From a virus (taxonomy: Duplodnaviria; Caudoviricetes): 64,000 bases of DNA. Where the stretch lies: IMG/VR virus record IMGVR_UViG_3300047157_000186. One strand, 5' to 3'. Position 1 is the first letter of the stretch; every line of letters begins with the position of its first letter. The position numbers and the translations under genes are program-made. Below the pieces are notes generated by a model. That model saw only the letters and a list, made by a program, of their open reading frames with translations. It was not told where the DNA came from and made no database searches. This document shows positions 542 to 12,137 of this stretch, one piece after another.

Positions 542-2176
542 ATGGCAAACATTACAAATGGAACAGTATCAGTAACAGTATCTGGAGGAGTCGGACCTTA
601 CCAGTATACTTTATTGAACGCAGGGAATAATTTACCTGTACCACAAAACGCATATCCGACGTTTCAAAATCCTGTAAATTCAGTTGTATCAAACTCATTT
701 ACTTTTGGAAACGCTACAGATTATTCAGGTAACAGTGGAGTTGTTGCAGGTGATTATAAAATAAAAATAGTCGACGGAAATGGTTGTGAAACTTTTACTA
801 ATGTTTTAACTGTTAATGCCAATACTCCTTCGCCAACTGCGACACCAGCTCCGACTGCAGTTCCAACTGCAACGCCAGTGCCAGATCCGACTGCAACGCC
901 AGTGCCAGATCCGACTGCAACGCCAGTTCCAGATCCTACAGCAACAGCTATACCAGATCCGACTGCAACGCCAGTTCCAGATCCTACAGCAACAGCTATA
1001 CCAGATCCAACTGCAACGCCAGTTCCGACTGCAATACCAACTGCAACGCCAGTTCCGACTGCTGAACCATTATTATTACAACCACAGAGACATGTTGTTT
1101 CTGGATGGAATCTAATGGCAGGTGAACCTGAAGAATTCATAAATGGATTACTTGATAAGAATGAAGAAGAACATCGTGATTTCTTCTGTAATGCACAAGA
1201 TATTAGTGGTGTATCTCATCAAGCAGGAGACGAAGCTAGACCATATGTATTATGGACCGCTGAAGAAGAGGCGTTAACTATGCCTGAAGTTGGAAACGTA
1301 TTTTACGCAGATCAAAATGGAGATGAATTCTTTACAAATAGTGGATTCCTTTGGTGGAATTCTGAAACACCATCATCAGAACCTACAAATTACTTCTGGG
1401 TTACTATAGGATCTGAAGGTGTAGCTACTAAAGTTTTACAATGGACAGAATGTCCACCAGATCCAACTGCAACGCCAGTTCCACCAACTGCAACGCCAGT
1501 TCCAACAGCTGAACCAACTGCAACGCCAGTTCCAACAGCTGAACCAACTGCAACGCCAGTTCCAACAGCTGAACCGACTGCAACGCCAGTTCCACCAACT
1601 GCAACGCCAGTTCCAACAGCTGAACCGACTGCAACGCCAGTTCCACCAACTGCAACGCCAGTTCCAACAGCTGAACCAACTGCAACGCCAGTTCCAACAG
1701 CTGAACCAACTGCAACGCCAGTTCCACCAACTGCAACGCCAGAACCAGAACAAGCTGATGCATATTACTTCCACTTAGGATCAGGAGGATATCCTTACGC
1801 ACAAGATCTAATTGGAGGAACTTTATATAAAGCTGATAATAGTGTAGCTGCTAATTATGATGAATCATTCGCAGATATGTTAGCTAACCCTGGATCATAT
1901 GAACAAGTAAACTCACTATCTGAAATAGTTGATGGTACTAGTTTTACAATTCCGGCAAGTAGTTCAGCTAACTTCTATTGGCTAGCAATTCCAGTAGATA
2001 TGATAGGTGATGACTTAACAGTTCATAAAAGATTTGAAATCGATGGAGCACCAGCAGATAATTGTTCAGAAAAATTAGCATTTGTTGGACCAAATGGAAC
2101 TAATTATAATTTGTATAAATTAAACACTGTTCCAATGACTATTGAATTACCTATAGTTTACGTTGTAAATAGCTAA
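542..2176 (+). CDS. Pro/Thr-rich (PTATP repeat) putative virion surface protein
   Basis: Two blocks of PTATPVP(D/TAE) tandem repeats separate globular beta-rich domains. Confidence 0.7.
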   Translation: MANITNGTVSVTVSGGVGPYQYTLLNAGNNLPVPQNAYPTFQNPVNSVVSNSFTFGNATDYSGNSGVVAGDYKIKIVDGNGCETFTNVLTVNANTPSPTATPAPTAVPTATPVPDPTATPVPDPTATPVPDPTATAIPDPTATPVPDPTATAIPDPTATPVPTAIPTATPVPTAEPLLLQPQRHVVSGWNLMAGEPEEFINGLLDKNEEEHRDFFCNAQDISGVSHQAGDEARPYVLWTAEEEALTMPEVGNVFYADQNGDEFFTNSGFLWWNSETPSSEPTNYFWVTIGSEGVATKVLQWTECPPDPTATPVPPTATPVPTAEPTATPVPTAEPTATPVPTAEPTATPVPPTATPVPTAEPTATPVPPTATPVPTAEPTATPVPTAEPTATPVPPTATPEPEQADAYYFHLGSGGYPYAQDLIGGTLYKADNSVAANYDESFADMLANPGSYEQVNSLSEIVDGTSFTIPASSSANFYWLAIPVDMIGDDLTVHKRFEIDGAPADNCSEKLAFVGPNGTNYNLYKLNTVPMTIELPIVYVVNS

Positions 2177-2204
2177 AATAAATAATAAAAATAAATAATA
2201 AAAA

Positions 2205-10825: not shown

Positions 10826-10889
10826 TCTCATTGGACATGTAAACAAAACGTTGATATATAATATAACTACTAATTAACGTTATAATTAC

Positions 10890-12137
10890 ATGGAAGAAAC
10901 CATTTTTATTCAGATAGCTAGCTATAGAGATCCTGAATTATTAAATACTCTAAAAGATTGTATAGAAAATGCTGAACATCCTGATCGACTTAGATTTGGA
11001 ATATGTTGGCAACATTCACCAGAAGATGAATGGGATACAATGGATCTATATAAAGATGATGATAGATTTAGAATTTTAGATGTAAATTACAAAGACTCTA
11101 CTGGAGCATGTTGGGCTAGAAATAGCATACAACAATTATATAAAGGAGAAACATACACCTTTCAATTAGATTCACATCATCGATTTATTAAAAACTGGGA
11201 TACAGTATTAATTACTATGTTGAAAGACTTACAAGCTAAGGGTCATGAAAAACCATTACTTACAAGTTATATTTCCTCATATCAACCTGATAATGATCCT
11301 GAAGGCAGACAAAAGCAACCATGGTTAATGAATTTTGATAGATTTACACCAGAAGGTGTTATATTCTTTTTGCCTGCTAGTATACCTAATTGGCAAAATC
11401 TAAAAGAACCAGTATCCTCTAGATTTTACTCTGCTCATTTTGCATTTACTTTAGGTAAGTTTGCAGTTGAGGTTCAACACGATCCTGAATTCTACTTTCA
11501 TGGTGAAGAGATAACTATTGCTATTAGAGCATTTACGCATGGATATGATTTATTTCACCCACATAGAATAATTGCTTGGCATGAATATACTCGTAAAGGT
11601 AGAACTAAACAATGGGACGATGATCCAGAATGGCATAAAAGAAATCATAGAACTCATGAGAAAACTCGCAAATTATTAGGTATCGATGGAGAATCCTTTG
11701 ATTCAGAAGAGGAAACATTTAATAAATATGGTTTAGGAAGAGTTAGAACTATTGCAGATTGGGAAAAACACTCTGGTATTAGATTAAAAGATAGACGAGT
11801 ACAACAACATACATTAGATAATTTACTATCACCTAATCCAATACCATTAGATTACGACAATAGTTTTCTACCAAAGTTTAAAACATTTATAGATATACCA
11901 AAATCCAAATTAACAGAAAAAGATTATGAATTCGTCGCTGTTATATGTGAAAAGGAAGATGGAACATCTGTATATAGAAATGATTTAAATGCTGGTGAAA
12001 TTAAAAGTAAACTTGATTCTGGAGATGAATGGGTCAATGTTATTGTAGATTATCAAGGTGAAAAACCATATAAATGGGTATTTTGGCCATATAGTACAGC
12101 TAAAGGTTGGTGTGAAAAAATAGAAAGAGTTATATAA
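10890..12137 (+). CDS. Polypeptide alpha-GlcNAc transferase-like glycosyltransferase (GT60 / Pfam GlcNAc family)
   Basis: Motifs IFIQIASYRD, CWAR, YTFQLDSHHRF, WD, FHGEE, R.FTHGYDLFHP match the Dictyostelium Gnt1 / trypanosome OGNT family as recalled. Confidence 0.8.
   Translation: MEETIFIQIASYRDPELLNTLKDCIENAEHPDRLRFGICWQHSPEDEWDTMDLYKDDDRFRILDVNYKDSTGACWARNSIQQLYKGETYTFQLDSHHRFIKNWDTVLITMLKDLQAKGHEKPLLTSYISSYQPDNDPEGRQKQPWLMNFDRFTPEGVIFFLPASIPNWQNLKEPVSSRFYSAHFAFTLGKFAVEVQHDPEFYFHGEEITIAIRAFTHGYDLFHPHRIIAWHEYTRKGRTKQWDDDPEWHKRNHRTHEKTRKLLGIDGESFDSEEETFNKYGLGRVRTIADWEKHSGIRLKDRRVQQHTLDNLLSPNPIPLDYDNSFLPKFKTFIDIPKSKLTEKDYEFVAVICEKEDGTSVYRNDLNAGEIKSKLDSGDEWVNVIVDYQGEKPYKWVFWPYSTAKGWCEKIERVI

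Follow-up and report, generated by a model that had tools for sequence, protein, structure and literature searches.

The characterized enzymes of glycosyltransferase family 60 (GT60) are Mn-dependent relatives of family GT27 that transfer alpha-linked N-acetylglucosamine (GlcNAc), either onto threonine of mucin-like tracts in the Golgi, as in Trypanosoma cruzi and Dictyostelium, or, in the case of Gnt1, onto the hydroxyproline Hyp143 of Skp1 in the cytoplasm (PMC3769586, PMC8724618, PMC7185993). All of them thus act on proteins, be it on mucin-like-tract threonine or on Skp1 hydroxyproline (PMC8724618, PMC3769586), and the peptide used as a test acceptor for the T. cruzi enzyme is KPPTTTTTTTTKPP (PMC3769586). 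GT60 shares with GT27 the replacement of the DxD motif by DxH as a signature, and it has been listed for prokaryotes as well as protists (PMC7185993). Our literature search returned no paper in which a prokaryotic or phage GT60 is assigned a function; phages came up only in a CAZy tally of a sponge virome preprint. Here we consider a GT60 gene (10890-12137, plus strand) in a stretch of 64,000 nucleotides (nt) from a virus of the Caudoviricetes (IMG/VR record IMGVR_UViG_3300047157_000186; hereafter the window). The gene starts 64 nt after the last of three genes whose products carry dense Pro-Thr (PT) repeats, and it heads a cassette of five enzyme genes (10890-15338). On balance, we favor the interpretation that the phage encodes a mucin-type O-glycosylation system acting on its own Pro-Thr proteins, with the GT60 product as the proposed initiating polypeptide N-acetylhexosamine (HexNAc)-transferase. 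While phage self-glycosylation as such is already known, position-specific comparative evidence for a pairing of GT60 and PT genes is new here.

The 10890-12137 product (P0005; 415 amino acids, aa) is clearly a member of PF11397/GT60. It matches the PF11397 profile ‘Glycosyltransferase (GlcNAc)’ with 255.6 bits against a cut-off of 21 (E 1.2e-75), in two stretches reaching profile position 348 of 352, and gives a full-length match to phrog_24687 in PHROGs (E 5e-175). Residues 1-318 constitute a GT-A catalytic domain with the motif D94-S95-H96; in an alignment with 45 homologues of 34-82% identity, D94, H96, E206, E207, R213 and H231 are invariant and S95 is nearly so. The AlphaFold2 model (pLDDT 96.2, pTM 0.91) has its best match among Swiss-Prot models in Dictyostelium Gnt1 (Q8T1C6; E 5e-25, TM 0.66, over residues 1-318), ranks 2-30 of the same search being taken entirely by polypeptide N-acetylgalactosamine (GalNAc)-transferases (ppGalNAc-Ts), which also account for 50 of the 50 best PDB chains; a sequence search of the PDB gave no match. 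Membership in GT60 is supported at three levels, by profile, by motif (DxH) and by fold. Further, since Gnt1 and the ppGalNAc-Ts fill the structural match lists, every named structural neighbor of P0005 is an enzyme that glycosylates polypeptides.

The remainder of the protein, residues 320-415, forms a separate FN3/Ig-like β-sandwich; when this C-terminal domain (316-415) is folded alone, it is predicted with a pLDDT of 91 and displays generic FN3/Ig likeness only (best Z 7.4). Pfam detected no ricin-type lectin domain in P0005, an absence that sets GT60 apart from GT27. A lectin role for the C-terminal domain was considered as well and is unsupported, as only generic FN3/Ig matches were found. 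P0005 is soluble, with no hydrophobic segment by the Kyte-Doolittle measure.

The candidate acceptors are encoded upstream of this enzyme, the left 15 kb of the window being a single plus-strand gene array. PT-repeat protein 1 (542-2176, plus strand, 544 aa; 13.8% Thr, 14.9% Pro) combines an N-terminal SprB-type Ig-like repeat (PF13573, E 5.7e-7) with a C-terminal globular domain and contains two (D/E)PTATPVP tracts at approximately residues 95-176 and 305-403. The fiber-like PT-repeat protein 2 (2205-4097, plus strand, 630 aa) begins with an N-terminal domain shared with the product of 4206-8939, followed by a short collagen run (Pfam Collagen, E 6.7e-8), a plastocyanin-like domain (Copper-bind, E 0.002) and two PDPTATPVPQ tracts; it is via the plastocyanin-like domain that it matches phrog_677, a baseplate wedge tail fiber connector (E 5e-19). 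PT-linker protein 3 (9284-10825, plus strand, 513 aa), the direct 5' neighbor of the GT60, is composed of globular modules joined by PTATP linkers and terminates in a Hint-like domain (10346-10825), to which Pfam gives a weak Intein_splicing match (E 8e-4). Its homologue P0126 (790 aa, L048:833-3205), from the locus with the closest GT60 relative, has two globular domains in common with it as well as PT linkers, but ends just past the shared globular domain without a Hint domain, and the Hint module is therefore a recent gain or loss.

The PTAT repeats of these three open reading frames (ORFs) are real and far beyond chance. In 542-2176, 2205-4097 and 9284-10825, respectively, PTAT occurs 20, 8 and 9 times and [ST]PxP 19, 10 and 12 times, the latter motif being found 0 times in six other large window ORFs that were checked; tandem DNA repeats of 21-30 nt underlie the tracts (Tandem Repeats Finder). 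Candidate acceptor peptide sequences for P0005 are given as DPTATPVPDPTATPVP. A complex prediction of the GT60 with residues 303-346 of PT protein 1 and Mn scored 0.00, with a pLDDT of 26-28 for the partner, a result that bears on binding in neither direction. The non-repeat domains of the PT proteins found no tblastn match among 50,697 phage records, nor did megablast match window positions 1-16000 to phages. The fiber-like architecture of the PT proteins suggests that they may be virion components.

An earlier interpretation made from the letters alone, the sequence-only reading, had already pointed to dense PTAT repeats at 542, 2205 and 9284 and to a GT60 motif set in 10890-12137. The 20, 8 and 9 units counted above confirm the former, while the profile search, in which the best family lies inside GT60, and the high-confidence model nearest to Gnt1 and then the ppGalNAc-Ts confirm the latter. 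The activities that it ascribed to the eukaryotic GT60 enzymes likewise agree with the published ones (PMC8724618, PMC3769586, PMC7185993). Its placement of the GT60 directly after three PTAT proteins is right as regards the 64 nt that separate it from the third, but passes over two genes between the second and the third, 4206-8939 and 8963-9280 (see below).

The pairing of GT60 with PT genes was surveyed in 45 IMG/VR loci and three further phage loci containing GT60 relatives at 42-82% identity, those in IMG/VR lying on contigs of 120-330 kb; 40 of the loci are non-redundant. An ORF was deemed strongly PT/PS-rich if 30 or more of its 30-residue windows had at least 8 Pro and at least 8 Thr+Ser. 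Across the 40 non-redundant loci, genes of this kind occupy the -1 position, directly upstream of the GT60 block, in 8 of 39 cases, whereas elsewhere within 10 kb they fill 11 of 685 positions (Fisher p 1.7e-6, odds ratio 15.8); at one further phage locus the PT gene is directly downstream of the GT60. When the repeats are disregarded, the adjacent PT proteins form seven groups without BLAST similarity to each other, and the GT60s that they accompany are spread across the GT60 tree, with at least 8 label changes required; counting the homologous partners of L033, L036 and L044 once leaves six independent pairings. Additionally, the near-complete genomes G002 (164 kb) and G005 (167 kb) each contain three PT-rich ORFs, the strongest of which, by far, is the 5' neighbor of the GT60. 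Such an enrichment at -1 is what one would expect if the GT60 were encoded next to its dedicated substrate. A search for outright enzyme-substrate fusions found a PT tract inside the GT60 protein in 1 of 150 GT60 representatives.

The family is also common in bacteria: a profile scan of species-representative genomes recovered at least 566 PF11397 relatives, from Bacteroidota, Gemmatimonadota, Verrucomicrobiota, Acidobacteriota, Burkholderiales and others, and there are 4706 GT60 cluster representatives at E < 0.001; NCBIfam holds no model for the family. Of the gene positions in 80 bacterial loci, PT-rich ORFs fill 11 of the 379 within three genes of the GT60 and 0 of the 213 further out. In Ralstonia sp. 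25C (L130:8270-11134, chromosome 1), an Achromobacter metagenome-assembled genome (MAG) and Paraburkholderia ferrariae, a VgrG with about 70 Thr-Pro repeats at its C-terminal end is situated three genes from the GT60 (the loci other than L130 being L133 and L163). The domains Phage_GPD, Gp5_trimer_C and Phage_base_V confirm the Ralstonia protein as a VgrG; a PAAR-like gene separates it from the GT60, and genes resembling those for the baseplate of the type VI secretion system (T6SS) lie upstream. The (TP)n-tailed VgrG is a possible glycosylated T6SS spike.

An iterative hidden Markov model search with domain-trimmed seeds located an HtrL-like domain near the GT60 at 26 of the 40 phage loci and 23 of the 80 bacterial ones; hence, the conserved core seems to consist of the GT60 and an HtrL-like enzyme. 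A broader proposition can be built on this, namely that GT60 enzymes with an HtrL-like partner might constitute a widespread and previously undescribed form of cytoplasmic mucin-type O-glycosylation in phages and bacteria, with Pro-Thr/Ser tracts, including fiber stalks and the (TP)n tails of VgrG, as substrates. We advance this generalization only tentatively, as a possibility somewhat short of even likelihood.

Variation in the family and its PT neighbors takes several further forms. Two or three tandem GT60 paralogues are seen in many phage loci (e.g., L025, L033-L036, L039, L040, L044), and in the giant proteins P0128-P0138 (1100-2460 aa) two to four GT60 domains follow one another in tandem. 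A phage contig (L045:7087-9948) and a Sediminibacterium MAG (L132:7005-9539) each encode a very long (PT)n or (PTTTQP)n protein beside the GT60, and both proteins carry a NIFFELYNEP motif in their non-repeat parts, which we take to be one known from GH5-type glycoside hydrolases; Pfam gave no family for the L045 protein.

Downstream of the GT60, the genes of the cassette overlap or abut throughout 10890-15338. The first of them, GTb (12137-12955, plus strand, 272 aa), overlaps with its start the stop of the GT60. Pfam gives it a weak match to PF03407 (E 0.003), and its look-alikes in a language-model atlas are viral clusters, some with GT_PLOD, GT8 or GT6; it is a probable retaining GT-A glycosyltransferase. 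GTc (12948-13673, plus strand, 241 aa), which overlaps GTb by 8 nt and displays an FMDDDV motif, is a probable glycosyltransferase as well, its atlas look-alikes being viral ‘glycosyltransferase family protein’ clusters with DUF3405 or DUF707. Neither has a solid Pfam match. At L048, L081-83, L024, L021, L007 and L012, GTb directly follows the GT60 and GTc is syntenic. The HtrL_YibB-like gene (13658-14452, plus strand) overlaps GTc if its TTG start at 13658 is used, an alternative ATG being present at 13685; it matches PF09612 (E 3.4e-21) and, below the cut-off, TIGR02192 of NCBIfam (E 2.8e-23). One base further on begins an NAD-dependent nucleotide-sugar epimerase/dehydratase (14454-15338, plus strand, 294 aa; PF01370, E 3e-22; phrog_540, E 7e-26). 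It reached no NCBIfam equivalog, the nearest being heptose and GalE-type enzymes, and it probably supplies a donor sugar.

The cassette is translationally coupled, soluble and conserved in relatives. The highest 19-residue Kyte-Doolittle mean is 1.15 among the products of 10890-15954 and 1.29 among all PT-gene and cassette products, with no hydrophobic segment in either set, and Pfam found no polyprenyl-phosphate priming transferase, flippase or polymerase among the genes of 10890-15954. A terminator-like hairpin (4122-4148, plus strand; 11-bp stem followed by a T run) lies 3' of PT gene 2, and the hairpin search found no terminator between 4148 and 15338. Since it is the sole strong hairpin within 542-15338, the arrangement is consistent with co-transcription of 4206-15338. 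A 15-mer, TATATTAGTAGTATA, resembles a promoter element of other gene blocks, with 8 exact copies and 13 copies at no more than 2 mismatches, against 0.6 expected, located at 17614-21499 (minus strand) and 57238-63871 (plus strand). At up to 2 mismatches, this early-promoter 15-mer is absent from the 64-nt spacer before the GT60.

Comparison with the closest relatives shows which parts of the arrangement persist. The 82%-identity GT60, on a contig of 193.5 kb (L048), keeps the gene order: a 105-aa ORF, the 790-aa PT-linker protein, GT60, GTb, GTc, an extra methyltransferase, HtrL and the epimerase. In L081-L083 (about 303 kb, 62% identity) the series GT60-GTb-GTc-HtrL/DUF3431 is followed by a UDP-galactopyranose mutase in the place of the epimerase, which suggests galactofuranose as a component of the glycan; this jumbo-phage type is very abundant (99 index blocks) and has no adjacent PT gene. 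The nearest virus record (G001) is a fragment that abuts the window at 19733, the GT60 region lying outside it.

These features can be assembled into a mechanism in which 10890-15338 would function as a cytoplasmic protein O-glycosylation cassette. The donor of the soluble GT60 would be a UDP-HexNAc, UDP-GlcNAc being the most likely one, and D94, H96 and probably H231 would bind a divalent metal. The enzyme would place the first sugar on Thr (or Ser) of extended Pro-Thr tracts in proteins of the same late transcription unit, the first acceptors being the products of 9284-10825, 542-2176 and 2205-4097. GTb, GTc and the HtrL-like enzyme would then extend or decorate that sugar, with the epimerase supplying a modified nucleotide sugar, and the outcome would be mucin-like, protease-resistant, hydrated stalks on fiber-type virion proteins. 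The acceptor residue, the donor sugar and the order of the later enzymes are parts of this scheme that we infer.

The sequence-only reading had anticipated much of this scheme and can be sharpened at several points. Where it spoke of three further glycosyltransferases and an epimerase after the GT60, the HtrL_YibB-like enzyme and the epimerase are solid, while GTb and GTc, though plausible, are only weakly indicated. The co-occurrence of GT60 and PT genes that it envisaged in related phages is present at the -1 position, but in a minority of the loci. Its central proposal, that the phage O-glycosylates its own virion proteins, gains comparative support from the adjacency in phages and bacteria, whereas transfer to the acceptor, the donor sugar and the virion location are still matters that we infer. 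Its description of the enzyme as ‘eukaryote-like’ is misleading in view of the 566 or more bacterial relatives, the 4706 cluster representatives and the listing of the family for prokaryotes in PMC7185993.

Several observations weigh against a protein-directed system of this kind. Approximately three quarters of the GT60 phage loci, including those of Xanthomonas and Stenotrophomonas jumbo phages, are without a directly adjacent PT-rich gene, the sampled loci are not fully independent, and the PT partner proteins of other loci match no annotated virion family in PHROGs or Pfam and have no function assigned. The proteins of aquatic phages commonly use PT tracts to link their domains, and the adjacency could in part reflect an insertion-site preference beside fiber genes. 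Further, HtrL_YibB, GT25 and heptose-type epimerases are usually tied to lipopolysaccharide (LPS); the downstream partners in other loci comprise GT34-like and GT25 ‘LPS biosynthesis’ proteins, methyltransferases and carbamoyltransferases; and the neighbors of the GT60 in the acidobacterium Tunturiibacter resemble HldE, HldD and a heptosyltransferase by eye, on N-terminal sequences that no family search has confirmed.

All this would sit comfortably with a cassette that makes or alters a glycan not carried by protein, such as host LPS, capsule or envelope polysaccharide, the PT genes being mere neighbors of glycan genes inserted beside fiber genes. Indeed, cyanophage and jumbo-phage ‘LPS genes’ are usually read as envelope-glycan modifiers, HtrL_YibB is an LPS-locus family, and the nearest relatives of the window epimerase are the heptose and GalE-type enzymes; the partner genes elsewhere, the acidobacterial neighborhood and the majority of GT60 loci lacking an adjacent PT gene fit equally. 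We nonetheless regard this explanation as unlikely. The cassette is without a priming transferase, flippase, polymerase or membrane segment, and the named structural neighbors of the GT60 as well as the characterized members of its family all use polypeptide acceptors (PMC8724618). An insertion hot-spot, moreover, fails to explain the exact -1 position of the PT genes, their seven unrelated architectures, the top-ranking PT ORF being the neighbor in two genomes, or the bacterial VgrG-(TP)n neighbors.

A different set of neighbors is found in the culturable phages XacN1 and Xoo-sp13, whose GT60 homologue, at 43-46% identity, lies amid DNA polymerase, RNase H, NUDIX and carbamoyltransferase genes, which also counts against the favored interpretation and would instead suit a cassette that hypermodifies phage DNA with sugars against restriction, as do virus glycosyltransferases acting on 5-hydroxymethyl-pyrimidines. 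DNA glycosylation figures among the standard roles ascribed to phage glycosyltransferases in papers on large phages (PMC12619734, PMC12801897). A thymidylate-synthase-family gene is present in G004 and G005, but G002 (90% complete) and G003 have none; no named structural neighbor of P0005 is a DNA glycosyltransferase, the GT60 family is common in bacterial chromosomes, and the adjacency to PT genes would be left unexplained, so that a DNA target appears very improbable. The XacN1 and Xoo-sp13 genomes also contain several (PT)4+ tracts. In XacN1 (AP018399.1), a culturable Xanthomonas jumbo phage, two giant (PT)4+ proteins of 3313 aa and about 2800 aa are encoded at 203370-213311 and 272200-280671, and the 3313-aa protein, ORF325, lies 9 kb from the GT60/carbamoyltransferase/HtrL cassette of this phage.

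The two genes intervening between PT genes 2 and 3 raise the matter of other acceptors. The product of 4206-8939 (plus strand, 1577 aa) is a collagen-like fiber protein (PF01391 Collagen, E 1.3e-118, in 13 stretches) in which Gly-Thr-Ser triplets nearly devoid of Pro are broken by TPIKGEDY units; it has no PT tract and is a possible second Thr/Ser acceptor candidate. The small ORF that follows (8963-9280, plus strand, 105 aa), in the place occupied by the 105-aa gene of L048, matched no family in Pfam or PHROGs. Very large collagen-like proteins of Gly-Thr-Ser triplets with nearly no proline are encoded at three places in the window (4206-8939, 32874-36119 and 41467-44190), and its collagen-like ORFs match tail-fiber PHROGs. 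By analogy with Bacillus BclA, in which a glycosylated collagen-like region is known, the Thr/Ser residues of the three large proteins could be O-glycosylation sites as well.

Elsewhere in the window, a protein encoded at 52725-54083 fuses a GT25 domain to an OGFOD2-like 2-oxoglutarate (2OG)-Fe(II) oxygenase domain (a weak match), and adjoins a GT4-type glycosyltransferase and an ATP-grasp protein (51706-52752 and 54538-55470). In a phage with several collagen-like fibers, this fusion could be a separate hydroxylation-plus-glycosylation module.

It is conceivable, if improbable in our assessment, that the GT60 acts on a protein but on something other than threonine of the PT tracts, i.e., on hydroxyproline in the manner of Gnt1 on Skp1, on Thr/Ser or hydroxylysine of collagen-like proteins, or on a host protein. 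The closest named structure being the hydroxyproline-specific Gnt1, the tracts being equally rich in Pro and Thr, and the window containing the GT25-oxygenase fusion together with at least three large collagen-like proteins all lend this some appeal. However, G002 and G005, which display the strongest GT60/PT adjacency, lack any PF13640 prolyl-hydroxylase-type gene (none is present in G003 either, as against three in G004), and the window oxygenase, 40 kb away and fused to GT25, fits a separate hydroxylysine route. Collagen genes are not enriched beside the GT60 in other loci, and several of the partner tracts are Ser/Thr-rich with few Pro-Pro contexts.

If a mucin-type system of the phage's own is indeed at work, the PT linkers of environmental phage proteins would need to be re-read as glycan-bearing surface, and glycans on fiber stalks could change how virions adsorb, resist proteases, stick to mucus or particles, and are recognized by hosts and grazers. 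GT60 would gain a first function for its large prokaryotic branch, and the origin of mucin-type O-glycosylation would be placed in prokaryotes and their viruses. Were the more general version to hold, many prokaryotic and viral ‘PT linkers’ would be glycosylated mucin-like domains, and the mucin-initiating enzymes of protists and animals would descend from a prokaryotic system. The claim of mucin-type glycosylation in the phage is directly testable with peptides and recombinant enzyme.

Among described systems, the protist GT60 enzymes TcOGNT-2, Gnt2 and Gnt1 share with P0005 both PF11397 and the DxH motif, Gnt1 being its best structural match, and the proposed phage acceptors are Thr/Pro-rich like the T. 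cruzi peptide. P0005 resembles Gnt1 in being soluble and in its proposed cytoplasmic site of action, whereas Gnt2 and OGNT are Golgi membrane proteins. However, the identity to Gnt1 is only 23%, over residues 1-318, and the phage enzyme has the additional FN3/Ig-like C-terminal domain. Unlike its protist counterparts, it is encoded by a phage at the head of an overlapping operon with GTb, GTc, the HtrL-like gene and the epimerase, and its activity is predicted from sequence and fold.

The animal ppGalNAc-Ts of GT27 provide the nearest solved structures; they display the same DxH motif and likewise have a β-rich accessory domain at the C-terminus. Their preferred site is a Thr followed by Pro at +1 and +3, a context that the repeats in the window present as TPVP/TPIP. 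Nevertheless, the phage enzyme is not a GT27 member: identity to that family is 11-17%, and its C-terminal domain is FN3-like rather than a ricin-type lectin.

Viral precedents exist for the use of such enzymes on a virus's own proteins. Giant viruses glycosylate their own fibers, with mimivirus encoding an L230-type hydroxylase/glycosyltransferase, and this virus-encoded fiber glycosylation is free of host secretory compartments, as is proposed here; the GT25-oxygenase fusion of the window adds a further parallel. Their hosts are eukaryotic, though, and they employ a hydroxylysine-based route and other glycosyltransferase families, while the window fusion (52725-54083) is a separate module 40 kb from the GT60. 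A further precedent is that of the mycobacteriophages, for which, according to the account in PMC12619734, glycosylation of virions by phage-encoded glycosyltransferases was demonstrated experimentally (Freeman et al. 2023). As described there, phage glycosyltransferases modify the phage's own structural proteins in the bacterial cytoplasm, which is the situation proposed for this cassette, but the mycobacteriophage glycans are found at the C-termini of capsid and tail-tube subunits (PMC12619734), whereas here the putative targets, as predicted from sequence, are the PT tracts of fiber-like proteins.

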